From assembly GCA_041665345.1 (NCBI GenBank), contig JBAYJA010000002.1:97252-161251 (forward strand): a stretch of 64,000 nucleotides of DNA, written 5' to 3'. The notes under the pieces were generated by a model, which saw only the letters and a list, made by a program, of their open reading frames with translations, was not told where the DNA came from and ran no database searches. A program made the position numbers and the translations under genes. This document shows, in pieces, positions 13,704 to 64,000 of the stretch. How positions within the stretch are numbered: position 1 is the first letter of the stretch; the number at the start of each line of letters is the position of its first letter. This DNA comes from Patescibacteria group bacterium. GTDB lineage: Bacteria > Patescibacteriota > Patescibacteriia > PEXW01.

Positions 13704-14680
13704 TGTTTCCTTTCGTTGGATTTCCTCACTGTCACCCGCACCAGTCCCTCCGGACTCATGCGGGCGGACAGTGTGCCCGAACGACAAACTGTTCAGGACA
13801 CTAAATAAAACAGACCCTCTTCTTTTTATAGGAGAGAGTCTGTTATTGGGTTGTAATCATAAGAATAGATAAATGAATAGTGAAATAATTGCAAATTATC
13901 CAGTCGCTTGTCGCAGCTTTCGCCGCGTTGTTTACACCAACCCACTGGTAGCGGGTAAGGTGCTCTCTCCGTCGACCCCCCAAGCGAAGAGGAGACGACT
14001 ATGGCACTATTCGGTTTTCAACGTTCGGACAGGCCGCTGAAATAACCAGTTCTAGCGTAACGGGGGAGTATATACTGGATTGCCAATCCTGTCAATACCT
14101 AAAAAGGCTAAGGTTAGCCAAAAGGGCTTAGATTAGCCAAAAATACTTATGGTAGATTGTTACGTCCCGCCACCGAGGCGGGATCCCGCCTTCCTTTCCT
14201 CAGAAGTAGAAAGTGGCGGGAAATTACGAAATGAAAGGAGTTACGCCCCGCGGAGCGGGGTCCCGCTTCGCGGGAAATATACGAATTACGAATGGGGATA
14301 CGGATGAATGGAAGGGATGGCAGGACGGGTTTGATTCTTGGATAATGACTGGTTCAAGTAATACAAGGGTTTGCCTGGTAAGGACTACCTCCCCCTACCC
14401 CCTCCTTCGAAAGGAGGGGAGGGTGTTTTTGGTTATGTACAGACCAAGGTGTATTTGTACGTTTCCTCCCCTTTCGAAGGGGAGGACAGGTGGGGTAACC
14501 CTTACCGGGTGAAAGTATGAATATGAACCCAGCTTTCTCCTTACGCCATACTTCTGCTATGGGGTATTGACAAGCTCCAAATACCATGCTACCTTTAGTT
14601 GTTTTTCAGGTAGTGCCACGCAAGGTGCAAGGAGCAACAAGCGTGGTGTTGGGTGATTAACTTTCCAAGGAGGAATTTGC

Positions 14681-15782: not shown

Positions 15783-16440
15783 ATGTAATAAACAAGCGCG
15801 GGTCTCTGTGCCCGCGCGCAGGCAGAGACGCCTGCGCTTGGGTGTTTATTATTGTCATCCTGAATCCCGTAGCGGGATGAAGGATCTCCGAAGTTGGTAT
15901 ATTGTTCGGAGATTCTTCCGCCTACGTTCAGAAACTTCGGCGGACAGGTCGTAAGACTCAGAATGACAGAAGGAGGAGGGGGTAGGCCAAAGCCCTCGCT
16001 TTGGCCTTTGCTATAAGTTGCTTTTCCCCCTCAGCCACGAGCGACCCACCTACATTGTTGCGATTTCGGCCACTGGCCCAGTGGGCGGGCAGGGGGCTCG
16101 CGGCTACCCCACGTGGGTAGGCGTGGTCCCTTGACCTCGCCTAATGGAAATCCGCCCGGGTCAAGGGACCCGGGCTACCCAAGGTGTGTGCTTGTTTCAG
16201 GACTGTCCAGCAAGATCCTTCCGCCTACGTTAAGAAACTTCGGCCACTGGCTCAGAGGGCGTACAGGTCGAAGACTTGGGATGACAGAAGGAGTGGGTAG
16301 GCGGGGCTTTCATGCCCCGCCATGTACAAAGCCAATAATCCTTGAACCAAGTGCTGAGGCATAAAAGCCTCAGCTACCCCCTTGGTTTGTAAATACCAAA
16401 AAGCCCCGGGCAGATGCACGAGGCTTGGTTTGAATGAGCG
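15783..16440. repeat. Intergenic repeat cluster sharing several blocks with 22190-22520
   Basis: AGCGCGGGTCTCTGTGCCCGCGCGCAG (15793) matches 22388. GGCGGGGCTTTCATGCCCCGC (16296) matches 22207. A roughly 70-bp block at 16040-16110 is the reverse complement of 22240-22300. Confidence 0.5.
15854..15967. mobile_element. MITE-like element, family A (114 bp)
   Basis: Terminal inverted repeats TGTCATCCTGAATC ... GACTCAGAATGACA. The internal block CTTCCGCCTACGTTCAGAAACTTCGG recurs at 16200 and 41600. Confidence 0.45.
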
Positions 16441-20595: not shown

Positions 20596-20787
20596 AAAAT
20601 TATTTACTTAAGTCGTCATGGTTCAAGACTGACGAGCGTTTTCCATTAGGGCTACCTCCCCCTACCCCCTCCTTCGAAAGGAGGGGAGGAGTTTCTTTAG
20701 TCACCCATACTCCTAGCTATCCCAAACCTTAACCCTCACACTATACTCGCCGCTACACCGAAACCCATGCCTCAGCTTGTGCCCCCC

Positions 20788-22112: not shown

Positions 22113-22623
22113 TGTACTTTTCAACCACCGTCTCATCTGAGTCGGTGGTTTTCATTTCTTCTGAGAAATCACCCTGAGGGGAGTAAGTCTAGGGGATGAA
22201 CCTGGTTATTCTTAGCGGGGCATGAAAGCCCCGCCTACCCACGTGAGGGTGGGTAGCCGTGAGCCCCCTGTCCGCCGAAATCGCAGCGATGTAGGCGGGT
22301 CGCTCGCGGCTTGGGGTAATGTATTGCAAAGACCAAAGCGAGGGCTTTGGTCTACCCACTTTTTTACAACGGACAAAAACAAAAGCAAACCCGAGCGCGG
22401 GTCTCCGTGCCCGCGCGCAGACAGGGACGCTTGGGCTTGGAGGAATAGGGGATATAAAAAACCTGGGTGGGGGAGTCACCCAAAAAAATGAACCCCGCGG
22501 CTTAGAAAAGCCGCTCTGGGGTGCATAGTATAAGTTTATTAGAAATGACTTACTAACTTTCCTCCTTCCCAATTCGTACATTCGTATTTTCGTAGTATCT
22601 ATTCGTAATTCGTAACGCCGCTC

Positions 22624-24387: not shown

Positions 24388-24597
24388 GCACGACGAATTA
24401 CCACCCCGGCCTCGAGTACGAGGCCGCCCCTCCTCGACGAGGAGGGGATAGGGAGGTGGAAAGTGCCACCAGCGTGATGATTGTCACCTCTTGTATCCCC
24501 TCCTTGCATAAGGAGGGGACAAAGGGGAGGTAATTCTCTCTATCTCCAACCTCTACCCATACTTCAATCCTTACCTAAACCTTCAATCTCTCCAAAC

Positions 24598-34385: not shown

Positions 34386-34512
34386 TGTATCCTCCTTAGT
34401 TATTTCAAGTTTCTATTTCGTAGTAGTTTTTCAGATAATGTAATAACTGTCAACCCCCCACCTACGCAGCAGCTATGGTGGGCAGGCGCCCCGCCCGCTG
34501 TAGCGTCCCTTC

Positions 34513-34675
34513 TGTCATTGCGAGCTCCAGCAGGAGCGTGGCAATCCCGATGAACTTCGGAACCAGGCTTGTACAATAGCCTGGCTCTTGATACAACGGG
34601 ATTGCCCGCCTGCATCGCCTCTGCGATTTCGGCGGGCAGGCCGCGTCACTCGATGACTCGTTCCTCGCAATGACA
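34513..34675. mobile_element. MITE-like element, family B (TGTCATTGCGAG ... CTCGCAATGACA)
   Basis: Terminal inverted repeats with internal sub-palindromes (GTGGCAATCCCG / CGGGCAGGCCGCG). The right inverted repeat overlaps the ATG of the GIY-YIG gene. An inverted copy lies at 61426-61539 and a half copy at 43819-43873. Confidence 0.5.
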
Positions 34676-34987
34676 AATGAAAACGTGCAAGAACGGTATT
34701 ACTATGTCTACATCATGACCAACGAGCGCAACACGACGCTCTACACTGGCGTGACCAATGATTTGCCCCGGCGGGTCATGGAGCATAAGGAGAAGACATT
34801 TCCCAAAAGCTTCAGTGCCAAGTACAACCTGACCAAGCTGGTGTACTACGAAGCTGGTGAAGATATCAGCGGCGCCATTGAACGGGAGAAGCAAATAAAA
34901 TCCTGGTCGCGAAAGAAGAAGGAGGAAGTCATCACCAGCGTCAATCCCACGTGGAAGGATTTGACTGCAGAGCTACTTGAGGGATAA
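34670..34987 (+). CDS. GIY-YIG nuclease superfamily protein (UPF0213-like)
   Basis: YYYVYIMTNERNTTLYTGVTNDLPRRVMEHKEK is the canonical GIY-YIG N-terminal motif. 105 aa. Confidence 0.7.
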   Translation: MTNENVQERYYYVYIMTNERNTTLYTGVTNDLPRRVMEHKEKTFPKSFSAKYNLTKLVYYEAGEDISGAIEREKQIKSWSRKKKEEVITSVNPTWKDLTAELLEG

Positions 34988-41324: not shown

Positions 41325-41514
41325 AGGTATAAAGCTGCTCCGACGCTTTGGTCGGAGCCCCGAGTGAGTCAGACGAATCGAGGGGTAGAGATCTTGGAAG
41401 CCTGTGGCAATTCCGCTAGAACACAGAACTGTCAGTTACCTCACCTCAAGCAGCAGCTTCTCTAAGCTGCGGTGTTATTAAGACCAAAGTGAGAACTTGG
41501 ACCTACCTTTTTTC

Positions 41515-41652
41515 TGTCATCCTGAATCATATGACCTGTCCACCGAAGCAGCAGCGTAGGTGGGAGGATCCCCAGGCTATGGATAAACTTCAGAGATTCT
41601 CCCGCCTACGTTAAGAAACTTCGGCTGACTGGTCGTCAGACTCAGAATGACA
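41515..41652. mobile_element. MITE-like element, family A (138 bp)
   Basis: TGTCATCCTGAATC ... GACTCAGAATGACA termini, with the internal block CTCCCGCCTACGTTAAGAAACTTCGG. Confidence 0.45.
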
Positions 41653-43725: not shown

Positions 43726-43949
43726 GGAGGTAGCAAGATAGCAAGATGGCGAGTTAGCGCGCTGGTATGAAGGCGCTTTTTTGTCTACCACAGGTGGTAA
43801 GGTGAATTATTTTACCCTCTGTCATTGCGAGGAACGAGTCATCGAGTGGCGTGGCAATCTTGCTGTCACACGGAATAAGTATAAAAAAAGCCGCCCGGTG
43901 GTGCCAGGCGGTGGTACTTCAATGGAAGGTTGAGTAATGGGGCAGACAG

Positions 43950-44345
43950 TTATGCAGTGGCCTGATTTGGTCTCGACAATTTGTAACTGATAGCAGCGAG
44001 TATGGCTCCTAAGACCAGGCAAAATGCTGCAACGTGCCATTCAAACGGGAGTTGTTCGTGTAGCACTCTCCGGTTATAGACAAGGATGTTGTCGAAAACC
44101 AGATTTATAGTGCAGAGACTGAGCGCCACAATGCCAATGAGGCAGGAAACTGCTTTCCGGTTGCTCCCGTCAACCCTTACGAGCAGGGTAATGAGCATCG
44201 AAAGCGAGAGAAGCAAACCGCCGTTCGTCATGAGCTGGTAGTGCTCATTTTTTGGAAGCAGGGCGTCTGTACTAAATATGAGCACGGACCCAATCAGCGA
44301 TAATGCAGTGAGCCGAAAAACAATGTACATCTCTTTCATGTACAA
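43950..44345 (-). CDS. Membrane protein (131 aa)
   Basis: 4 TM helices. Followed on the minus strand by a conserved terminator (rc of AAAAAAAGCCGCCCGGTGGTGCCAGGCGG). Confidence 0.45.
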   Translation of the reverse strand: MYMKEMYIVFRLTALSLIGSVLIFSTDALLPKNEHYQLMTNGGLLLSLSMLITLLVRVDGSNRKAVSCLIGIVALSLCTINLVFDNILVYNRRVLHEQLPFEWHVAAFCLVLGAILAAISYKLSRPNQATA

Positions 44346-44439
44346 TTCCTTTCCTAAAGATCATTTTTTCCATCTTAGAGTCCGTTTTGGCATTTGTCAA
44401 ATAATAAAACCGCCCAGTTGAGCCAGGCGGCAAAGGTGA

Positions 44440-44811
44440 TTACACCTGTAGATTACCAAAGCAATCTATGTGGAGGGTAACGTTACTTTCACTGTATCCC
44501 TTCCCCTCGATTTCCAGAAGAGAACCTTGCATTCGAAGCTTAGCATCCCCAACTGCTACTAAGCAGAAATCCCCATCATTTTCTAGACCATAGTAGTAAT
44601 AGAAGTTTATTTTTTTATCCTTGGTCAAGAGAATGTAAAAGAATAAATTGGGAAGGACATAGGACCCATTACCACCAAGCGTTACTGATCCGGAGAAAGC
44701 AATCGCTTGGTTTTTTTCAGCAGCCTCTACAAAAGCTAGTGGCCAATCGTAGGGGTCGAGATCAGACCGAACTGCTGGAATTCCCATGCTTGAATTTCCT
44801 TTAGTGTTCAC
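44440..44811 (-). CDS. Hypothetical protein (123 aa)
   Basis: ORF followed by the terminator variant CCGCCCAGTTGAGCCAGGCGG. Confidence 0.4.
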   Translation of the reverse strand: MNTKGNSSMGIPAVRSDLDPYDWPLAFVEAAEKNQAIAFSGSVTLGGNGSYVLPNLFFYILLTKDKKINFYYYYGLENDGDFCLVAVGDAKLRMQGSLLEIEGKGYSESNVTLHIDCFGNLQV

Positions 44812-44909
44812 TCATTCCTCCTTTACAGAACTTTTTTTCAGCCTAGCTCTGTACATAAAGAACGTCAAATAGAAAAAGCCGCCCGGATTTTTCCAGGCGG
44901 CGAATGCTG

Positions 44910-45260
44910 CTACAGAATTTGGATCATTCCTTTTGTATCTAGACATAAAACGATCAATGTATCGTCAACAGTCTTGCCGATTATGTACAGGTCATCGTCT
45001 AGTTCTTGAACAAGAGAAACCCTGCGGTAATAGACAGTGAAAAGATCCCCTCGTTGATTATCTAACGTTAAAGTGACTCGGAGACCTTTTTTTCTAAAGC
45101 CTAGCTCCCTTTCTAGTATTAGGGTTGTGCCGCTATCTTTAGTCTCGAGTTGCAGCGTTTCTACGGAGATGGTTTTGTCCCCTTGCTTCCCGATTTCCTT
45201 GTCGTGTTTTACAAATTGTTTGCTAAAGTAGGCCTCGATGATCTGTTTAAATTTTTCCAT
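44910..45260 (-). CDS. Hypothetical protein (116 aa)
   Basis: ORF followed by the terminator variant GCCGCCCGGATTTTTCCAGGCGGC. Confidence 0.4.
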   Translation of the reverse strand: MEKFKQIIEAYFSKQFVKHDKEIGKQGDKTISVETLQLETKDSGTTLILERELGFRKKGLRVTLTLDNQRGDLFTVYYRRVSLVQELDDDLYIIGKTVDDTLIVLCLDTKGMIQIL

Positions 45261-45366
45261 TTTTCCTCCAATTTCTTTGTGCCTACCTTAGAATAAGAGG
45301 AATAATTTGTCAAAAAAGGACCGCCCGGTGGTGCCAGGCGGCTTCAATGAAAGAAACTGCTGCGTA

Positions 45367-45810
45367 TTAGCCCTGAACGTCATCCTCAACGCTGAAACTG
45401 CCATCTCGGTAGAAGTAAACGGCTCGTTCCACGCCTGGGAGAGGCTCAGTGATAACGGCCAGTTCATTTTCGGGGTCATTGAGATTAGGGTATTCAATGG
45501 CCACGATTCTTTCGACGGATGCGTGACTTAGAGCAGCTTCGTCGGCCGCTTTGGGTGACCCAGGAATGAGCGCGCACAAGCGCTGGGTAAATCTGAGTCC
45601 AAAAGAGCCTTTCTGTTTACCATAATGAATGCAAACCAGCAGGCTGATTCCTTCCAAGCGCTTGTGTTGCATTGGTACCAAGAAACTTGCAAGTCGGAAG
45701 CCTCCTGGAAGTTCTTCGGAAAAATGTGTGAATCCGCCATTTTTCTCGAAAAATGTTTTTAATTCCTTAACAATGCGCTCGGGACTCAAAGGAGTTCTCA
45801 AGAAATCCAT
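45367..45810 (-). CDS. Hypothetical protein (147 aa)
   Basis: ORF followed by the terminator CCGCCCGGTGGTGCCAGGCGG, identical to the copies at 43892 and 45900. Confidence 0.4.
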   Translation of the reverse strand: MDFLRTPLSPERIVKELKTFFEKNGGFTHFSEELPGGFRLASFLVPMQHKRLEGISLLVCIHYGKQKGSFGLRFTQRLCALIPGSPKAADEAALSHASVERIVAIEYPNLNDPENELAVITEPLPGVERAVYFYRDGSFSVEDDVQG

Positions 45811-45932
45811 ATGTACCTTTCTTTCGCTGTTTATATTTGTTAATACATGAAATTAGCATAGTTGTCGTTTTCTGTCAATACTTTTTAGTAGAGCAGAAAA
45901 CCGCCCGGTGGTGCCAGGCGGTCGATTCTTGT

Positions 45933-50349: not shown

Positions 50350-51061
50350 TGTCATTCTGAGTCCTCCAGCAGGAGGGCGAAGAATCTCCGAAGCTCGTCG
50401 TTACCATCAGGCAGATGCCGTCACGGACATACTACGTCTATATCCTCACCAATAAGCATCACACGGTGTTGCATACTGGGGTGACGAATGACCTGGAGCG
50501 ACGGGTGACCCTGTCCGCCCACGTAGCAAAATTGGTTTAATTTGAAAAAAGCTTGAAGCATATAGTACAGACTTGACTCGGTAAGGGTTGCCCTCTTCAC
50601 CACCGGGGTGCTTCCGATGGGCCGCACCCGTCTCCGACCCCTTGGAAAGGGGAGGACAGATACTAAGACACCTTGGTCAGGAATGAGCCACAAACTTGTC
50701 CCCTCCTTGCAAAAGGAGGGGGTTGGGGGTGGTAACCCTTCCCGGGGTGACACTGTTATACAAACCAAGTAGGCAAAATGGCCACAGCCTGTTTCTGTAT
50801 TACCGGAAGATTGCCACGTCCCGCATGTGCGGGACTCGCAATGACAGAATAGAGAGAAGGAGAGGGATCGAAATATAGTACCAAGACTGCAGAACGTCTC
50901 CCTCGCCCTCTGAGGGAGAGGGAACAAGGGAGAGGGGGCACCCTCATGGGTCGATCACATCTAAAAAACCAAGCACGAAGAAAGAGCACGGTTAGTCTTC
51001 TTGGTTCCGTGTAACAGCAAGATTCTTCGACGCAGACTCCTCAGAATGACAAGAGAGAAAA
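50350..51061. mobile_element. Composite repeat region: family-A inverted repeats enclosing a GIY-YIG remnant and a family-B right inverted repeat
   Basis: TGTCATTCTGAGTC at 50350 and GACTCCTCAGAATGACA at 51045-51061. Inside are CTCGCAATGACA (50838) and the hairpin repeats shared with 14380-14520. Confidence 0.4.
50411..50539 (+). pseudogene. Truncated GIY-YIG nuclease remnant (43 codons)
   Basis: MPSRTYYVYILTNKHHTVLHTGVTNDLERRV matches the N-terminus of the intact GIY-YIG gene at 34670, but terminates after the motif. Confidence 0.5.
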
Positions 51062-54812: not shown

Positions 54813-55361
54813 ATGTGTTCACCTATGCCTGTCCAAAATGCTGCTACACCAGGAGTGCCCATGCCGGAAAAAGAGCCGGAGGATATTTTTGCCTTTCAAG
54901 GGGAAACTCCAGCTACGCCAGAAGGTCGGGTGGAGGTACGCGTTGAACAACCTGTAGAAAAACGTGAGACTCGGCCAGAAGTTGCTCCAGTAAAGGAACA
55001 GCCCGAAGTTCCTGTTGCACATGAGACACCTACCACCCAACCTGTAACGAACCAAGCGTTGCCAGTGCAAGCGGCTGACCAGCGGCTCATTCAGGTGGAG
55101 AAGATTTTAGCTGAAGGATTGGAGGAGATTTACAAAACCTTGCCGTCGGCTGAGCAACAGCGTTTTCGGATTGAAGGGGAAAAGGCGGCACACGAAGTTG
55201 CCACGCTGATGGGGCAAGTCAAAGTGCGGGTGCAGCAAATCATCACGGTTATCAGAAAGTGGCTTTCCGTTTTGCCTGGGGTGAACAAGTACTTCATTGA
55301 GCAGGAAGCAAAAATTAAAGCACAACGCATTCTGCTTCTCCGTGACCCAGAAAAGTTGTGA
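54813..55361 (+). CDS. Pro/Glu-rich protein with C-terminal coiled-coil
   Basis: PEV/PV repeats. The stop overlaps the GTG start of the downstream coupling-protein gene. Confidence 0.4.
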   Translation: MCSPMPVQNAATPGVPMPEKEPEDIFAFQGETPATPEGRVEVRVEQPVEKRETRPEVAPVKEQPEVPVAHETPTTQPVTNQALPVQAADQRLIQVEKILAEGLEEIYKTLPSAEQQRFRIEGEKAAHEVATLMGQVKVRVQQIITVIRKWLSVLPGVNKYFIEQEAKIKAQRILLLRDPEKL

Positions 55362-57913
55362 TTGGCGCTTTTTTCATTTCCGCAGCACACGCCCAGTTTC
55401 TGGATGAGCCGGCGGTCGTTGAAACCAGCTTCCCGTGGCTGGTCGTTGTACTTGTGGTGATTGTCGTCCTTTTGGTGTTGGTTGGACTCGTCCTGCTCCG
55501 GCAGCGCCGTCGGAAGGGCACGCCAGGGAATTTGCAAAAAGTATTTTTGCGCGTGACTTTACCCAAAGAGCAGCAAGAAGAGGAGAATGGCCAGGCTGCT
55601 TCTCGTGTGCAGCAAATGCAGGAGCAGATTAGCGTTGGTGAATCCTTCCTCTCCTTTTTGGCAAATATGCGAGCGCAGCGGTGGTACGCCACCTTGGGTC
55701 AAGGCCGTAGCGATCACTTCAGTTTGGAAATTGCCGCCATCAACGGTGAGATTTGCTTCTACGTGGTGGTGCCGCAGGTGATGCAGGAATTCATGGTGCA
55801 GCAAATCCACGCCCAGTACCCCAGCGCGGAAGTCCTGCCAGTGCCGGAGTACAATCCATTCCAACCCCGAGCTGTGACTTTGGGTGCGGCAATTGGCGTT
55901 TCTAAGAATCCACTGTTGCCTATTCTAACCTACCGGCGCATGGATGTGGATCCACTTGCCGGTCTGTTGAACATTCTGGGGAAGCTTGGGCAGGGTGAGT
56001 CTGTGGTCATTCAGTACGTCTGCCGTTCTTCTCACCCCCGGTGGCACGCTCGTGCAGGTTCGATGATTCGCGGCATTCGGGAGGGGAAGAGTACGTCGGT
56101 TGCCGGTGGGTTAGCAAAGTCGGTTGCGTCTGAGGTTATTCACACCTTCATCCCCAAAGGGAAGAAAGATGATTTGGCAGATATTCCCAAGCAACTCTCG
56201 CCCGTACAGGAGGAGCTTATTAACCGGATTCAGGAGAAGAGCGCAAAGCCTGCGTTTGACGTGAATGTCCGCATTATCGTTTCCTGCCAGAATGCGCATA
56301 CTGCCACTGCGCGCCTGCAAAATGTGGTGGACGCCTTTGGACAGTACACAGCGTCGGATACAGGGAATGGGTTTCGGAAGCGGAGCTCAGGAACCAATGA
56401 TACAATTGTCCGTTCCTTCATCTATCGGGCTTTTGATGCAAAGCGTTTTGCCTTCCATCGCATCATGTCCTTACTTACTACAGAGGAAATGGCGAGTATG
56501 TGGCACTTGCCACTGGCGAGTACGGAAACGCCAAACGTGCGCTGGATTTTGTACCGTACCGCGCCACCCCCACTTACGATTCCTAAATCTGGCATCCTGT
56601 TGGGCATCAGCCGGTACCGTGGGGATGAAACGCCTATTCGGATAGCGCGGGAAGACCGGCGACGGCATGCCTACGTGATTGGAAAATCTGGTGTAGGAAA
56701 ATCTGTGCTCATGGCGAACATGGCCTTGCAGGACATTGCCAATGGTGACGGCGTCTGCGTGGTGGATCCACACGGAGATTTGGTGATGGATATTCTTGCT
56801 CGGCTGCCCGTAAACCGGAAAGACGACGTCATCTACTTCAATCCTTCTGATACTGAACACCCGGTGGGTTTGAACATGCTGGAGGCGGATACGCCCGAGG
56901 AGCAGGATTTTGCCGTGCAGGAAATGATTGCAATTTTCATGAAGCTGTTCCCGCCGGAAGTCATTGGTCCCATGTTTGAGCACAACATGCGGAATGTGAT
57001 GCTCACGCTCATGGCGGACAAAGAAAACCCCGGGACGATTGTAGAAATTCCACGCATGTTTACCGACCCAGCTTTTCAGAAAATGAAGGTAGCAAATGTA
57101 ACTGATCCAATTGTCCGGTCCTTCTGGGAAAAGGAAATGGCCAAGACTAGTGATTTCCACAAGAGTGAAATGCTGGGCTACTTGATTAGCAAAGTTGGGC
57201 GCTTCGTAGAAAATGCCATGATGCGGAATGTGATTGGCCAGCCGCGCAGTGGCTTTGACTTCCGGAAGATAATGGATGAAGGGAAAATTCTCCTGGTAAA
57301 CTTGTCCAAGGGAACGACTGGCGAAGTGAATGCAAACCTGTTGGGGTTAATTATTGTAAGCAAACTGCAGATGACGGCTTTGCGCCGGGCAAATCTACCT
57401 CAGGAGCAGCGCCGAGATTTCTTTCTGCACATTGATGAATTTCAAAACTTCATTACCGACTCTGTGGCGACAATCCTCTCTGAAGCTCGGAAGTACCGTT
57501 TGAATCTCACCATTGGCCACCAGTACGTTGGCCAGCTGGTGCAAGGCGCGGACACGAAGATTCGCGATGCGGTCTTTGGGAACGTCGGCACCATCATTGC
57601 CTTCCGGGTGGGTGTGGAAGATGCCGAGACCTTTGCTCAAGCCTTTGCTCCAACCTTCAGTGCGTACGACGTCACGAATGTGGAAAAGTACACGGCGATT
57701 GTGAAGTTACTGGTGGACAATGCCTCATCTAAGCCATTTACCATGCAAACTTTGGCATTGAATCCTGAAGTGCCAGGCCAGGCGCAACAGCTCATTGAGC
57801 TGTCACGCATGCGGTACGGTCGCGCTCGTCAGCAGGTGGAAAGTGAAATTTTGGAACGTTCCAAGTTGGGCGTGAGCGCCCCGCCACCAATGGTCGCGGA
57901 GAAGAAGGCGTAG
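55358..57913 (+). CDS. Type IV secretion / conjugation coupling protein-like ATPase (VirD4 / TraG / TraD family)
   Basis: N-terminal TM segments. Walker A GKSGVGKS. Walker B-like HIDEFQNF. Large all-alpha domain. 851 aa. Confidence 0.6.
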   Translation: MIGAFFISAAHAQFLDEPAVVETSFPWLVVVLVVIVVLLVLVGLVLLRQRRRKGTPGNLQKVFLRVTLPKEQQEEENGQAASRVQQMQEQISVGESFLSFLANMRAQRWYATLGQGRSDHFSLEIAAINGEICFYVVVPQVMQEFMVQQIHAQYPSAEVLPVPEYNPFQPRAVTLGAAIGVSKNPLLPILTYRRMDVDPLAGLLNILGKLGQGESVVIQYVCRSSHPRWHARAGSMIRGIREGKSTSVAGGLAKSVASEVIHTFIPKGKKDDLADIPKQLSPVQEELINRIQEKSAKPAFDVNVRIIVSCQNAHTATARLQNVVDAFGQYTASDTGNGFRKRSSGTNDTIVRSFIYRAFDAKRFAFHRIMSLLTTEEMASMWHLPLASTETPNVRWILYRTAPPPLTIPKSGILLGISRYRGDETPIRIAREDRRRHAYVIGKSGVGKSVLMANMALQDIANGDGVCVVDPHGDLVMDILARLPVNRKDDVIYFNPSDTEHPVGLNMLEADTPEEQDFAVQEMIAIFMKLFPPEVIGPMFEHNMRNVMLTLMADKENPGTIVEIPRMFTDPAFQKMKVANVTDPIVRSFWEKEMAKTSDFHKSEMLGYLISKVGRFVENAMMRNVIGQPRSGFDFRKIMDEGKILLVNLSKGTTGEVNANLLGLIIVSKLQMTALRRANLPQEQRRDFFLHIDEFQNFITDSVATILSEARKYRLNLTIGHQYVGQLVQGADTKIRDAVFGNVGTIIAFRVGVEDAETFAQAFAPTFSAYDVTNVEKYTAIVKLLVDNASSKPFTMQTLALNPEVPGQAQQLIELSRMRYGRARQQVESEILERSKLGVSAPPPMVAEKKA

Positions 57914-57923
57914 GGCAGTATTT

Positions 57924-60857
57924 ATGAAAGGATCCAGAAAACGTATGCACCAGGAAACTGAAGTTACAACGCGAGGTCTTACATTGACCCAGGTGACTGC
58001 GGGAATTTACCTGGTGACCAGTGTCCTTGCAACTGGGGCTATTGCTGCAGCATTACTGGTGCAGTTGTCTACGAAAACACCCGCGACAAAGCCTGCTCTG
58101 ACCGCCTGTACTCCAGTAGCTGTCCAGACACCCATGCAGCTAGCGAATGCATCCACTACCACCCGCAAAGCAATTACCACCTCTTTTCAGGTGGTAAACC
58201 AAAAGGTGCTAGATGCCCAAGCAGCAAAGCTCACTGATGCACAGCTCATCCAAGCGGCAAAGAATCGGAAAGAGTACTTTTTGAAAATGGCCGCCTTGGA
58301 TCCCGCCAGCTTGCTCAAGAACCTCTCCTCAGCATCCGTCAGAAATCGTTTAGCAGGAATAAGCACGAATTGTGTGGAGCAGAAAGAAATTGCGGAAGGA
58401 GTTGTGGAAATCCAAATTGCTGAAGATCTCATTGGGGAACGAGACTGGCATTTTTACGCGCTCAAACAAGCAGACGGTACACGCCTCCAGTTATTCCCAG
58501 CGAAAGGGGAACTAAAAATTTCCGCTGGCTCGCAAATTCGGGTGCAGGGTTTCAAACTTGATGATAAAGTAGTTTTTGATGCAACGCGCGATATAGCCGC
58601 AGTTCCGTCAGCAAGCCCTGATGATAGTGGGTATGTAGTGCAAAACTATCGCAGTCCTAGTGTTGTGCAGGGTGAGCAAAAGACTTTGGTTATTCTGGGA
58701 ACTTTTGCAAATAGCAGCACGCCAACCGGGGACGTGAGTGTGGTAAATGTGCAAGAGAAAATGCAAGAGGTGAATAATTACTTTGTGGAAGTTTCAAACC
58801 AGCGGATGAACATTGCTGCACTGCAAGCCGATGGTCAAGCAGCAGATGTCCGAGGTTGGTACAATTTAGATATTCCAGAAAGTTGCGATCGAAATATTGT
58901 TGTTGCCTCTGCGATTCGTGCTGCCGATGCTGAAATTGATTTCAGCGCTTATTATAACGTCATTGTCTACGCCCCAATTGAAACTTTACCCTGTGGGTTC
59001 AGCGGTGTGGCATCGCTAGGTGGCAATGAGCAAATGGTAACAAATGATGGCACAGTTTCTTTAGCAATGGCATGGATAATATTCAAAACTGAATTTTTCC
59101 CAATGTACTTCATGGGGACGACCACCCATGAGATGGGGCATCTTATAGGCCTGCAGCATGCAGCACGTCTTTACAATAGAACTTTTCCATTAAATGATGG
59201 GACAGACATTATTGGACAATATGGAGATCCGTACGATGTTATGGGTAATGTACAAAGGCACGGGTCCTTTAATGGCCCACATAAAGAATTTTTAGGCTGG
59301 ATGCAACCTGAGAATAGTAGGACGGTGTTGGCTAGTGGGGACTACACTATTTACCCTTTAGAATTCAATGGCGGCGGTACCCAACTTGTAAAGATTCCAC
59401 GCTCCTCAAATCAGTTTATTACTATTGAATACCGACAGCCGATTGGTGTCGATTTTGACTTGCCAGTGAGCGTTTACACCGGTGGACTTGTGCATTTAAT
59501 GAATCAGGATAACACCATGACCACGATGCTTGATGTTGATGACCCAACGAGCGATGAAAGTTACGTACTGGGGATTGGGCAATCAGTAACTGACCCACGT
59601 TCTGGGACGGTTATTCAGGTTTTGAGTGCAACGAGTGAAAGTTTACAAATACGTGTGAACATTGGGAATGTTGATTTTATACCACCTGTATTTTCCCATA
59701 ATTTCATTAGTGGATCTAGCATTTCGGGACCTTTCCAGATAATGGTTTCAGCTACTGACGAATCTCAGATTGAAAAAGTTGTTGTTGAGTTGGATGGTCT
59801 TAATATTCTGCTGTGTGAAGATTTTTCATTCCCATACCAGTGTACTTGCAGTCTTCCAGAAGATTTATCCGATGGTAATTATTACCTGCGAATAAAAGTT
59901 TTCGATCGTGTTGGGAATATCGGGATAAAATACGTTTCGTTCCTGTCCACCCAACATGGTGACGTGGGTTTGTTTTCAGATATTCCAAATGGTGCGTACA
60001 TAAAAAATGGTATGCCCGCAACACTTCTAGTGCGTGGGATTACCCCTTTGTCTCTCCCTGGATCAAGTGTAGATATGTGCCTCATGCCATCTAGCGGAGT
60101 AGTCCCAATTTATTGCCGGTATGATTATGATGCTCCATTTACGTATACGCTTTCGACCACAGGGATTAGTAATGGATATCATCGCGTACGTTTTTCTTTT
60201 TATGATGAGGTTTTTCACTACTGGGAACTAACACGAAATGTGGTTATTGACACAATTGCGCCATTTGGCTCATTTAGTTACCCCGATCCTGGAGTGGTGA
60301 TATCAGACAATATTTTTACGAGCCAGGTTTACTATGAAGATCAATTTGGTACTGAGAAGATAGAGTTCTTTAAGGGAGACGAACAAGAGCCATTAGTCAC
60401 CATTCATATTCCTCAAGATTTCACTTACTTAAATTTACACGATTTTCCTGAAGGGGAAACAACATTACGTGCAAAAATTTATGATTTTTCTGGAAATACC
60501 CGGGACGTAGAAACAACTTTTCGGGTAATGTACAATCGTCCTTGTGGTGATGTTGATGCTTCTGGTGTCACAGATATCACCGATGCTGTTTTTTTAATAA
60601 ACTACCTGTTCGGTGGTTCATCCCAGAATCCCTCCCCGTACAGATTTGGAGATCCTGACGGGAGTGGATTCATTTCTGTTTCTGATGCGGTGTACCTCAT
60701 CAATTACATCTTTGGGGGTGGACCAGCCCCGGTCTGTGGGTTGCAAGGCTTTGTGAAAAAAGCGCCGGATATGACCGAAGGGTGGACTTTGGAATCCTTC
60801 AAGCAGAAGTATCCGCAGGCCTTTACCAGCCAGGCTGAGGGCAAGCCGCAAGATTGA
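57924..60857 (+). CDS. Secreted metzincin-like zinc metalloprotease with C-terminal dockerin repeats
   Basis: N-terminal TM or signal. HEMGHLIGLQH equals the HExxHxxGxxH metzincin signature. C-terminus DVDASGVTDITDAVFLINYLFGG / DPDGSGFISVSDAVYLINYIFGG are two dockerin-type Ca-binding repeats. 977 aa. Confidence 0.6.
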   Translation: MKGSRKRMHQETEVTTRGLTLTQVTAGIYLVTSVLATGAIAAALLVQLSTKTPATKPALTACTPVAVQTPMQLANASTTTRKAITTSFQVVNQKVLDAQAAKLTDAQLIQAAKNRKEYFLKMAALDPASLLKNLSSASVRNRLAGISTNCVEQKEIAEGVVEIQIAEDLIGERDWHFYALKQADGTRLQLFPAKGELKISAGSQIRVQGFKLDDKVVFDATRDIAAVPSASPDDSGYVVQNYRSPSVVQGEQKTLVILGTFANSSTPTGDVSVVNVQEKMQEVNNYFVEVSNQRMNIAALQADGQAADVRGWYNLDIPESCDRNIVVASAIRAADAEIDFSAYYNVIVYAPIETLPCGFSGVASLGGNEQMVTNDGTVSLAMAWIIFKTEFFPMYFMGTTTHEMGHLIGLQHAARLYNRTFPLNDGTDIIGQYGDPYDVMGNVQRHGSFNGPHKEFLGWMQPENSRTVLASGDYTIYPLEFNGGGTQLVKIPRSSNQFITIEYRQPIGVDFDLPVSVYTGGLVHLMNQDNTMTTMLDVDDPTSDESYVLGIGQSVTDPRSGTVIQVLSATSESLQIRVNIGNVDFIPPVFSHNFISGSSISGPFQIMVSATDESQIEKVVVELDGLNILLCEDFSFPYQCTCSLPEDLSDGNYYLRIKVFDRVGNIGIKYVSFLSTQHGDVGLFSDIPNGAYIKNGMPATLLVRGITPLSLPGSSVDMCLMPSSGVVPIYCRYDYDAPFTYTLSTTGISNGYHRVRFSFYDEVFHYWELTRNVVIDTIAPFGSFSYPDPGVVISDNIFTSQVYYEDQFGTEKIEFFKGDEQEPLVTIHIPQDFTYLNLHDFPEGETTLRAKIYDFSGNTRDVETTFRVMYNRPCGDVDASGVTDITDAVFLINYLFGGSSQNPSPYRFGDPDGSGFISVSDAVYLINYIFGGGPAPVCGLQGFVKKAPDMTEGWTLESFKQKYPQAFTSQAEGKPQD

Positions 60858-61399
60858 GCGTGTTTATACCCATCCTGCTATTTTTAGTATTTCTGCTCGT
60901 CGCCACCGCTGCTTACGCCGGGTACCGGGCTGCACCGTGGTTACCCACCCGCGCAGCTGATGCGCAACGGTTGGTGGATTTGGCCGGGGTCCAAAGTGGT
61001 GACGTAGTTTACGAGCTTGGAGCAGGTGATGGGCGGGTGTTGCTCCCATTCACAAAAACCCAAGCAAAGTCCATTGTTGGTTTTGAGATATCCCTTGTCC
61101 CATATTTGATTGGGCTTTTTCGGATCCGAAAATTTCGGCCCAGGGTTGCGTTGCGCTTCCGGGATTTCTTCAAAGTCTCGTTCAATGAGGCGCAGGTTGT
61201 TTACTGCTTTCTTACCCCCAAAGCTATGGCAGCGCTGGCGCCGAAGTTCCGGCAGGAATTACAACCAGGGACGCGGGTGCTCTCTTACGCTTTTCCCATT
61301 CCTGGTTGGGAGCCGGAGCAGGTGAGTAAGCCCACGCCGGAGCAGATGGCGATTTATAAGTACATCGTGGGGGAGAGCCGTAGAGCTGTAGAGCGGTAG
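60854..61399 (+). CDS. Class I SAM-dependent methyltransferase with N-terminal TM
   Basis: Motif I VVYELGAGDGRVLL. ATGA overlap with the upstream gene. Confidence 0.5.
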   Translation: MSVFIPILLFLVFLLVATAAYAGYRAAPWLPTRAADAQRLVDLAGVQSGDVVYELGAGDGRVLLPFTKTQAKSIVGFEISLVPYLIGLFRIRKFRPRVALRFRDFFKVSFNEAQVVYCFLTPKAMAALAPKFRQELQPGTRVLSYAFPIPGWEPEQVSKPTPEQMAIYKYIVGESRRAVER

Positions 61400-61425: not shown

Positions 61426-61539
61426 TGTCGTTGCGAGGAACGAGTCATCGAGTGACGCGGCAATCCCGTTGAACTTTGGAACCAAACTGGTTCTATATAC
61501 GTCGGGATTGCCACGCTCCTGCTGGAGCTCGCAATGACA
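61426..61539. mobile_element. MITE-like element, family B, inverted orientation (114 bp)
   Basis: TGTCGTTGCGAGGAACGAGTCATCGAGTGACGCGGCAATCCCG ... CGGGATTGCCACGCTCCTGCTGGAGCTCGCAATGACA, matching the 34513-34675 element in reverse complement. Confidence 0.5.
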
Positions 61540-61620
61540 GAGGGAGGGGCTTGACCCCTCTCCAATCCCCATGGTACATTCTGCCTAGGAAAACACACCT
61601 CCACATCCTCTAATAAACAT

Positions 61621-63231: not shown

Positions 63232-64000
63232 TTAGAGTTGCTCAGTTGTCTGTTGGGTAGCCGTGAAAACTTGGGGGTACTTTCCTTTGAATTGTTCGTA
63301 CGTCATCCCCTGCGTTGGATTCACTGCACGTTTGACGCTGGTGCTCCCGGTTGGGCATTTTGGTGCTGACCCACCGGCGAAGATGTAGTTGATGAGGTAC
63401 ACCGCATCGGTGATGCTCACTTCGCCTGAGGCATCTACATCACCTTGGCTTAAGGGTGTTGGTACTGACCCACCGGCGAAGATGTAGTTGATGAGGTACA
63501 CCGCATCGGTGATGGTGACTAGGTTGTCTCCGTCAACGTCTCCATTCGTTCGGGTTGTGCCGTCCGTACAGCTGGTGTCAACATTGCACGCTTGGTTTGG
63601 TGACCCATCAGCGCACATACCCACGCAGGCTGGGTCGGCGGTGCTTCCATCTGCAGTTGGGAGGCAAAGGGTAGGAATTGTGGGACGTAAGGTTTGGTTC
63701 TGTTTCACATGTGGCCACTGCGCACTACGTACAGAGGTCGCAATCTCTCCATCCCAGCGGAAGATGTAGCTTGTATTTGTCGCCGGAACCAAGATTTCAG
63801 GCTTTCCGTCAACGTCGAAATCCGCTACTACTGGTGGGCGATAACCAGTAATCGATGCATTGGTTGCGTATGGGGAACCCGAAGTATGCTGGCCATCTGC
63901 ATTTAATATCGCAACTTGGCAATTGGTTTGGGTGGACGAATTCGTGGTCACCACAATCTCTGGGGATAGATCTCCGTTTACATCGTTTAATAATACATTT
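63232..64000 (-). CDS. Secreted FG-GAP-like / dockerin-repeat protein, C-terminal part (gene continues past window end)
   Basis: The frame stays open upstream of the annotated start to position 64000 (...DVNGDLSPEIVVTTNSS...). FG-GAP-like DFDVDGKPEILVPA. Two dockerin repeats: DVDGDNLVTITDAVYLINYIFAGG and DVDASGEVSITDAVYLINYIFAGG. Confidence 0.5.
   Translation of the reverse strand, partial: NVLLNDVNGDLSPEIVVTTNSSTQTNCQVAILNADGQHTSGSPYATNASITGYRPPVVADFDVDGKPEILVPATNTSYIFRWDGEIATSVRSAQWPHVKQNQTLRPTIPTLCLPTADGSTADPACVGMCADGSPNQACNVDTSCTDGTTRTNGDVDGDNLVTITDAVYLINYIFAGGSVPTPLSQGDVDASGEVSITDAVYLINYIFAGGSAPKCPTGSTSVKRAVNPTQGMTYEQFKGKYPQVFTATQQTTEQL

Follow-up and report, generated by a model that had tools for sequence, protein, structure and literature searches.

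The stretch of DNA analysed here, 64,000 nucleotides of a 1.08-Mb metagenomic contig from a Patescibacteria metagenome-assembled genome (MAG) and referred to below as the window, carries a small gene, ssn, for a GIY-YIG nuclease, together with dispersed copies of two families of short hairpin repeats, A and B. The gene occupies 34685-34987 on the forward strand and encodes a single-domain protein of 100 amino acids from the GTG at 34685, or 105 from the ATG at 34670. In the 34670-34984 open reading frame (ORF) the Pfam domain PF01541 is matched with E=1.3e-16 over residues 10-84 of 105, and no second domain is found. An opposed pair of B-type repeats at 34513-34675 lies 9 nt upstream of the gene. 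Pair and gene are conserved in L002 and L008, two related genomes of the Candidate Phyla Radiation (CPR) which, with L003, are the relatives of the window in a comparison set of 80 species-representative genomes with homologous loci. The initial annotation described the right-hand repeat as overlapping the start codon. The ATG of the longest ORF, at 34670, does lie inside this repeat, but the real start is probably the GTG at 34685, those 9 nt past it, because L002 and L008 carry an ATG in place of this in-frame GTG and homologs start about 5 residues ahead of the YYVY motif; the same two observations rule out the ATG at 34670 as the likely start. Homologs of the protein number more than 8000. 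Similarity to the UPF0213 structures 1zg2 and 1ywl is weak (E about 1e-4), and membership of a UPF0213/Slx1-like group was rejected for this reason.

Each repeat pair is made up of two half-sites in opposite orientation. In the pair beside the gene, the first is a B-type, SRM-like half-site (34513-34546, + strand) that reads T-GTC-ATTGC-GAG-CTCCagcaGGAG-cgtg-GCAAT-C, with an exact head, as the 5' end of a half-site is called here, and an exact complementary partner. Its minimum free energy (MFE) structure as DNA consists of the basal stem and an apical hairpin (z=-2.2). The half-site is kept in L002 and L008, where the apical hairpin is swapped for another. A spacer at 34547-34599, partially conserved among the window, L002 and L008, leads to the second B-type half-site (34600-34675, - strand), which has the opposite orientation and a long branched apical region (head match, partner, folding z=-2.9); an extra 36-nt hairpin within it is absent from L002, from L008 and from the copy at 61426. 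A consensus scan found no sigma-70-like promoter in the pair or its spacer.

The B-type terminus, TGTCATTGCGAG, is matched exactly at 34513(+), 34664(-), 43820(+), 50835(-) and 61528(-) and with one mismatch at 61426(+). With up to 2 mismatches the window holds 11 matches against 5.6 expected, a count reached in 0 of 100 shuffles. For the A-type terminus, TGTCATYCTGARTC, exact matches lie at 15853(+), 15955(-), 41515(+), 41639(-) and 50350(+) and degenerate ones at 16273(-) and 51038(-), the search giving 9 matches against 1.4 expected and again 0 of 100 shuffles with as many; the repeats are thus real, non-random families, as had been proposed. A tolerant scan of the window in which a complementary partner was required gave 13 convincing half-sites, forward (F) or reverse (R): 15854F, 15911R, 16214R (degenerate), 34514F, 34600R, 41516F, 41595R, 43821F, 50351F, 50809R, 51021R, 61427F (one mismatch) and 61506R. 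They group into four opposed pairs (15853-15968, 34513-34675, 41515-41652 and 61426-61539), one disrupted pair (50350...51051) and three singles, and every copy is intergenic.

The A-type pair at 15853-15968 combines a left half with the stem ATCCT/AGGAT (15853-15886, +) and a right half with ATTCT/AGAAT (15911-15968, -), with folding z=-3.8 and -2.3 respectively. That at 41515-41652, recognised from its termini and partners, likewise has an ATCCT half (41515-41570, +) and an ATTCT half (41595-41652, -), and the apical hairpin of its left half is similar to another repeat family of the window. The second B-type pair, 61426-61539, is inverted with respect to the pair at 34513, to which it is 88% and 98% complementary; its halves lie at 61426-61465 (+, with head GTCGTTGCGAG and a G-T in the stem) and 61506-61539 (-). 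Among the singles, a degenerate A-type half-site at 16214-16286 (-), seen in both the terminus search and the partner scan, has the head GTCATCCCAAG and one stem mismatch, and a B-type half-site at 43820-43859 (+; exact head, partner) has an apical part 94% identical to that of 34640-34675.

The disrupted pair encloses an ssn pseudogene. A-type half-sites with ATTCT stems form its left flank (50350-50386, +; exact head, partner and folding) and its right flank (51021-51051, -; degenerate head, partner), the MFE structure of the latter lacking the basal stem. Between them lies a 41-codon ORF (50415-50540, +) with a PF01541 match of E=1e-5 (50415-50537) and, by tblastn, 69% identity to residues 3-31. 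Homology of this remnant is limited to its first ~31 residues, which are uninformative as to an A or B protein clade, and tblastn found no further ssn copy in the window beyond it and the intact gene. The composite also contains a B-type half-site (50809-50846, -; exact head, partner, folding z=-3.4). It had been described as a 712-bp nested insertion; more simply, it can be seen as a hairpin-ssn-hairpin unit that has decayed and now holds an additional B-type hairpin along with hairpin modules of unrelated kinds. The copies listed in the initial annotation stand, with corrected coordinates: the composite ends at 51051 and not 51061, the remnant ORF is 50415-50540, the degenerate copy is 16214-16286 and the half copy is 43820-43859.

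All half-sites follow a common plan, namely (T/C)GTC, a 5-nt stem arm starting with A, GAG, a variable insert of 8-70 nt that usually folds as its own hairpin, c-G-(a/t)-(a/g), the complementary arm and C-(T/C)-C. Families A and B differ only by compensated changes in the stem (ATYCT/AGRAT versus ATTGC/GCAAT); their proposed relatedness is thereby borne out. Their description as elements with simple terminal inverted repeats does not hold, as each pair is instead two independent hairpins: in the A-type pairs of the window the ATCCT/AGGAT half and the ATTCT/AGAAT half are each complementary to themselves and not to the other. Among gene-less pairs of the wider set, all 15 of the 15 A-type pairs, from CPR, Bacillota and cyanobacterial contigs, are such ATTCT+ATCCT heterodimers, and B-type pairs are mostly homodimers. 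The two A-type halves could also pair mutually on one strand via G-T wobble.

Covariation of the two stem arms is strong evidence of intrastrand pairing. For 478 heads, collected from the window and some 80 further loci solely by their 5' pattern, the exact complement lies downstream in 90% of those with ATTGC (GCAATC, n=206), 93% with ATTCT (AGAATC) and 75% with ATCCT (AGGATC). The same is seen for rarer stems (ACTGC 78%, ATCGC 86%, ATTCC 71%, ATGCT 83%, ATCCC 80% and ACCCT 60%), and off-diagonal combinations of stem and partner are near zero, so that the stem is maintained through at least nine compensated variants. Conservation outside the stem was measured in a non-circular manner on 413 hairpins found by stem, GAG and partner, the tag not being required. 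Upstream of these the bases are T (57%) or C (23%), then G (84%), T (83%) and C (83%), and C occupies the first position past the stem in 81%. Directly outside all half-sites of the window the DNA is pyrimidine-rich on the 5'-GTC strand, reading GAAGGAGG-like on the other strand (for example at 34498-34512, 41500-41514, 15969-15985 and 61540-61556); in the wider hairpin set this flank bias is weaker, with T at 67% at -1, and G-poor.

The link between the repeats and the GIY-YIG gene, first suggested for this window, is real and general. Identical 11-mers flank the ssn gene in the 80 genomes, which come from Pseudomonadota, Bacteroidota, Chloroflexota, Cyanobacteria, Bacillota, several CPR lineages and others. 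Half-sites occur at 5.9 per kb within 200 nt of the gene and at 0.25 per kb elsewhere, a 24-fold enrichment, and at least one lies within that distance at 71 of the 80 loci. The commonest layout, at 27/80 loci, is head, gene, inverted head (F-gene-R), and F-F (10), R-R (9) and R-F (8) arrangements also occur. The canonical unit is about 0.4 kb long and consists of GTCATTGCGAGGAGCGAAGCGACGAAGCAATCTC, an ORF of ~290 bp and the perfect inverse of the first element (~34-bp inverted repeats); such units are seen in Chryseobacterium, Woesebacteria, Melainabacteria, a gammaproteobacterial MAG (L059) and others. A second recurrent layout, with a complete pair directly upstream of the gene, is that of the window, L002 and L008, the apical hairpin being swapped between them.

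A nuclease with hairpins of this kind has been characterised in Neisseria meningitidis by Chenal et al. (2025; PMC11893778). SsnA is a 94-aa single-domain GIY-YIG protein assigned to CDD cd10448 (GIY-YIG_unchar_3). It binds the NTS hairpin (CGTCATTCCCGCGMAVGCGGGAATCYRG) only as single-stranded DNA (ssDNA), and not as double-stranded DNA (dsDNA), RNA or the reverse strand; it cuts ssDNA just upstream of the hairpin and leaves dsDNA uncut (PMC11893778). Binding depends critically on the C that follows the palindrome and cleavage on the three bases upstream, activity is lost when the stem sequence is altered with the structure retained, and the loop is dispensable and extendable. Residues Y6, Y17 and E64 were mutated in the same work. 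SsnA reduces transformation by NTS-bearing DNA, and Ssn homologs across bacteria are flanked by related motifs, the SRMs (PMC11893778).

The window protein has the properties by which this family is recognised from sequence. It falls among single-domain GIY-YIG proteins of about 94-150 aa with catalytic Tyr, Tyr and Glu, and its gene is accompanied by putative cognate hairpin repeats, the pair at 34513-34675. By tblastn it matches a single place in an N. gonorrhoeae chromosome (E=4e-17, 91% coverage), which exceeds the published homolog threshold of E<1e-10 and at least 75% coverage (PMC11893778), the reference here being the NTS-flanked locus of N. gonorrhoeae and not the N. meningitidis protein itself. 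In pairwise alignment with the ORF at that locus it is 42% identical over 91 aa (E=8e-27), a far closer match than that to the UPF0213 structures. At this locus the SsnA-like ORF is preceded by at least seven NTS copies and followed by copies of dRS3. Residues Y14, Y25 and E73 of the window protein, invariant or nearly so in 26 homologs, align with the YVY, LYIG and REKQ motifs of the Neisseria ORF, whose Tyr, Tyr and Glu correspond by spacing to Y6, Y17 and E64 of SsnA. The N. gonorrhoeae locus lies at 1880219-1883488 of NZ_CP119142.1, a 2.17-Mb chromosome filed as a plasmid, and its ssnA-like ORF has no in-frame ATG upstream of VYILAS, an apparent frameshift of the start.

The hairpins agree with the biochemistry. 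The GTC and the 3' C, found to be conserved independently of it, are the positions that are experimentally critical in SsnA, and the variable apical region agrees with the dispensable, extendable loop of the NTS. All window copies carry the unpaired 5' (C/T)GTC tag, the AT stem start and the unpaired C after the stem that define SRMs and CGTC-tagged repetitive extragenic palindromes (REPs). The TGTCAT end shared by both families, to which the initial annotation drew attention, is therefore meaningful, its GTC and AT stem start being conserved recognition features and the three upstream nucleotides controlling cleavage in SsnA (PMC11893778). Since the protein matches the Neisseria ORF and the GTC and 3' C coincide with the critical positions, the window is read as an Ssn/SRM locus: 34685-34987 very probably encodes an Ssn-family, SsnA-like GIY-YIG endonuclease, with families A and B as cognate hairpins of the kind now called SRMs and earlier described as CGTC/TGTC-tagged REPs. 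As in the published system (PMC11893778), a single-domain GIY-YIG protein of about 95-105 aa is encoded between or beside short hairpin repeats with a (C/T)GTC tag, an AT stem start, an unpaired C and a variable loop, and the repeats are dispersed, intergenic and often in opposed pairs. The locus is a further example of that system, in a candidate-phylum bacterium, and not a new kind of system; the idea that it was undescribed was dropped in view of PMC11893778.

Protein and stem vary together. The nearest neighbour of an Ssn protein has the same stem type in 14/14 cases for A and 53/54 for B, in agreement with the loss of SsnA activity upon change of the stem sequence (PMC11893778). That one enzyme mobilises both families, as was at first supposed from the shared terminal hexamer, is accordingly doubtful. 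In the window the B type occurs with an intact gene and the A type with the remnant only; as the sole A-linked gene there is dead, the A-type copies may be orphans, unless another gene lies elsewhere on the contig.

Several points weigh against this assignment. The Neisseria comparison depends on the N. gonorrhoeae locus with its apparently frameshifted start and not on the N. meningitidis protein. In the window hairpins a basal stem of 5 bp leads through a GAG internal loop to an apical hairpin of 8-70 nt, in place of the published continuous stem of 8-9 bp with a loop of 3-5 nt, so that they differ in geometry from all substrates tested so far. The published SRM motif, HGTCWYN(0-2)YYVSBRHN(0-5)WNVSBRGN(0-2)RNCYNB, which matches the NTS control, is found nowhere in the window and at only 3 sites across 454 kb of homologous loci, because the GAG after the 5-bp stem violates its YYVSB positions. 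The expected fold is the MFE structure in 7/12 window half-sites (z -1.6 to -3.8) and not in the other five, so the argument for hairpins is carried by covariation and not by thermodynamics. Finally, what the Neisseria enzyme does in transformation may not apply to a CPR organism.

The REPs with a CGTC tag described by Di Nocera et al. (2013; PMC3733652) have this tag (often TGTC), an AT stem start and a short tail, occur mostly as dimers, with heterodimers in some families, and are found in five phyla; they include dRS3 of Neisseria and RPE-4/-6 of Rickettsia, and "apparently lack a dedicated transposase" (PMC3733652). The window repeats resemble them in the CGTC/TGTC tag, the AT at the first two stem positions, the short unpaired tail, the intergenic position, the spread over several phyla and the arrangement as opposed dimers, some of them heterodimers (65 gene-less F..R pairs in the comparison set). 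In contrast to the continuous stem of 8-9 bp, loop of 4-5 nt and CCA-like tail of the CGTC REPs, for which no enzyme was found, the stems here are bulged and branched (5-bp basal stem, internal loop, 8-70 nt apical region), the tail is C(T/C)C and an associated enzyme is evident.

What is new at this locus is the Patescibacteria MAG host, a hairpin class outside the published SRM motif and the co-variation of protein clade and stem. Two stem types, one intact gene and one dead gene are also found within one region. The main text of PMC11893778 mentions neither Patescibacteria nor Bacteroidetes nor the work on CGTC REPs, and no follow-up study on Ssn was found in the open-access literature searched.

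By analogy with the Neisseria enzyme (PMC11893778), the window protein would bind the hairpin only as ssDNA, and only the strand reading 5'-GTC. The C after the stem would be used for binding and the GTC for catalysis, and the cut would fall a few nucleotides upstream of the hairpin, that is in the pyrimidine-rich flank outside each pair, the place expected for an SsnA-like enzyme. The biological effect would be cleavage of repeat-bearing ssDNA, either incoming transforming DNA or replication or repair intermediates (PMC11893778). The hairpin-ssn-hairpin layout suggests that the unit derives from, or persists as, a selfish element like an insertion sequence (IS). By homology the enzyme is an ssDNA endonuclease of a characterised kind. 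CPR bacteria are thought to be dependent on DNA uptake, and an ssDNA-restricting nuclease could matter for their genome dynamics.

A further proposal extends the Ssn assignment rather than being a strict alternative to it. The gene-less pairs could be active non-autonomous transposons, resembling MITEs (miniature inverted-repeat transposable elements) or the REP doublets called REPINs, and the ~0.4-kb hairpin-ssn-hairpin unit an autonomous IS with the GIY-YIG protein as its ssDNA transposase, analogous to IS200/IS605 or to REPs with their RAYT transposases and with other chemistry. This is tentative, and on present evidence rather unlikely. What speaks for it is an architecture like that of an IS, the ORF being enclosed by perfect inverted ends of ~34 bp in distant phyla; Chenal et al. 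themselves remarked on the IS-like NTS-ssnA-NTS arrangement and on the REP/RAYT parallel (PMC11893778). The proteins are 55-65% identical across phyla, with identical 11-mers at the ends of the units; many homologs lie on very short contigs, as multicopy repeats would; and 1.19 Mb of ssn-free CPR contigs hold gene-less pairs at a density of 0.035 per kb, some ten times that expected by chance. Arrays and tandemly duplicated heads beside genes fit as well, as does the position of the copies, which differs between the window and L002, L003 and L008 except for the gene-adjacent pair, and the presence in L002 of a second ssn copy with SRM-like hairpins in a decayed paralog of a neighbouring gene.

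The arrays, at L014 2440-3830, L034 360-820 and L054 3330-3375, are of pairs around ssn genes with tandem duplication of the outer 11-20 nt of the head only, for example GCTCAGGATGAC three times at ~10-nt spacing; the duplications suggest repeated end-processing or slippage at the cleavage side. The second ssn paralog of L002 (257-574, within 1-720) is intact and surrounded by five SRM-like hairpins, all without the GTC tag. Gene and hairpins together lie within a fragmented gene, a paralog of the one preceding the main ssn copy (L002 9476-9871).

The description of the repeats as MITEs in the initial annotation is not sustained. Flanking direct repeats at the 65 gene-less pairs are no more frequent than in a control with re-paired flanks, so that there are no target-site duplications, and none is seen at the four window pairs. 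L008 and L003 have no counterpart of the 41515 copy at the syntenic place following dnaJ, but the difference is part of a 0.9-kb indel; the 43820 copy is missing from the syntenic site in L003, but at the edge of a 2.6-kb indel. No clean filled-versus-empty site was found among L002, L003 and L008, which are too divergent and differ by larger indels; in a metagenome scan with the neighbouring 851-aa protein the closest relatives were only 70% identical. GIY-YIG enzymes hydrolyse DNA without a covalent intermediate, and strand transfer would therefore need other factors. For SsnA it is cleavage, not transposition, that has been demonstrated (PMC11893778). Six Chryseobacterium species hold the unit at one locus, which points to long vertical residence. 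Active MITE-like transposition is possible but unproven.

The REP/REPIN-RAYT systems, whose Y1 HUH transposases are related to IS200/IS605, also have tagged hairpins in opposed intergenic pairs, a small gene within its own repeats, recognition of hairpins in ssDNA and no target-site duplications. Here the associated gene is not an HUH Y1 transposase but a GIY-YIG enzyme, with hydrolysis in place of covalent tyrosine catalysis and a GTC in place of a GTAG tag; moreover, ssn genes may be present in several copies, with 55-65% identity between phyla. Bacterial MITEs are similar in their length of about 70-165 bp, their inverted ends, their non-coding nature and the sharing of ends with a gene-carrying unit. 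In contrast to them, the window repeats show no target-site duplications, each end is a hairpin of its own, the two ends can differ and the protein is not a DDE transposase.

Host palindromes such as terminators, mRNA stabilisers or RNA elements, with the GIY-YIG gene nearby only by coincidence, are a very unlikely explanation. In its favour, all copies are intergenic, CGTC REPs are mostly found downstream of genes with RNA roles proposed (PMC3733652), and the window is rich in other intergenic hairpin families. Against it, neither the 24-fold enrichment around ssn genes in 80 genomes nor the tracking of stem type by protein clades would be expected of such elements, and the conserved unpaired GTC and C are needless for terminators. 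The hairpins have no T-tract after them, no Rfam family is matched in the window at gathering thresholds, and SsnA does not bind the RNA form (PMC11893778). Slightly less likely still is a free-standing homing endonuclease with the pairs as its targets, an empty pair being cut and then repaired from a gene-containing copy: GIY-YIG enzymes do include homing endonucleases and the gene often sits between the halves of a would-be pair (27/80 loci), but all orientation combinations occur (F-F 10, R-R 9, R-F 8), the lineage of the window has the gene outside a complete pair, the protein is without a DNA-binding domain and Neisseria SsnA leaves dsDNA uncut (PMC11893778).

The most far-reaching combination is speculative and improbable as a whole. 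In it, GAG-class hairpins would be the main cross-phylum form of Ssn substrate, missed by the published motif, and the ~0.4-kb unit with its gene-less pairs would be a still-active, GIY-YIG-driven ssDNA mobile element; nuclease clades and hairpin stems would co-diversify, like guide and target. If true, such a unit would be a mechanism of transposition or propagation without described precedent. Returning to the Ssn assignment, it ties a repeat-rich part of a CPR genome to a system whose biochemistry is known, the site-specific cleavage of ssDNA at hairpins. It also joins two literatures, the 2013 CGTC REPs that had no transposase and the 2025 Ssn nucleases, a link not found in the open-access literature searched. 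A large class of Ssn-associated hairpins, spread across phyla, escapes the published search motif. The tracking of stem type by protein clade would be useful for picking new enzyme/substrate pairs for ssDNA tools and for asking about the mobility of the unit.

Other repeats are abundant in the window, for which ARAGORN gave neither a tRNA nor a tmRNA. Copies of a G+C-rich motif, CCCCGCCC(C)GCTGCGTGGG, follow one another about every 450-1150 nt between 28852 and 34500 (28852, 29410, 29969, 30418, 31570, 32636 and 34476), directly upstream of successive small genes (PNPOx, NUDIX, Fic and hypotheticals), giving the look of a cassette array; its copy at 34454-34500 abuts the ssn-adjacent hairpin pair. 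At 43874-45921 four terminator-like hairpins, CCGCCCGGTGGTGCCAGGCGG, each preceded by an A-rich run, follow one after each small minus-strand gene, and this gene block is absent from L003. Intergenic clusters at 15795-16390 and 22200-22440 have hairpin modules in common in mixed orientation, for example GGGTAGGCGGGGCTTTCATGCCCCGCC, in the manner of the mosaics known as BIMEs and NIMEs. They flank a segment of ~6 kb with hydrolase and glycosyltransferase genes, and the A-type pair at 15853 lies in the first of them. Another hairpin family, CCCCTCCTT-GCAA/CGAA-AAGGAGGGG and its neighbours, is found at 14361-14504, 20648-20687, 24497-24522 and 50638-50759, one copy filling the interior of the decayed ssn composite (50560-50800).

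Direct repeats of 58-87 nt, 70-97% identical, occur between tandem small minus-strand genes (4925-5001/6000-6076, 7047-7140/7893-7985 and 8288-8374/9058-9144) and are probably duplicated upstream regions of paralogous genes. Towards the end of the window, 55358-61399 encodes a type IV secretion coupling-protein-like ATPase with TrwB/TraG domains and, after it, a 977-aa Ig-domain/dockerin protein. Another dockerin protein (63232-63954) contains an internal 99-nt tandem duplication at 63360-63520, and the dockerin segments also form inverted repeats (60576-60730 versus 63362-63513).

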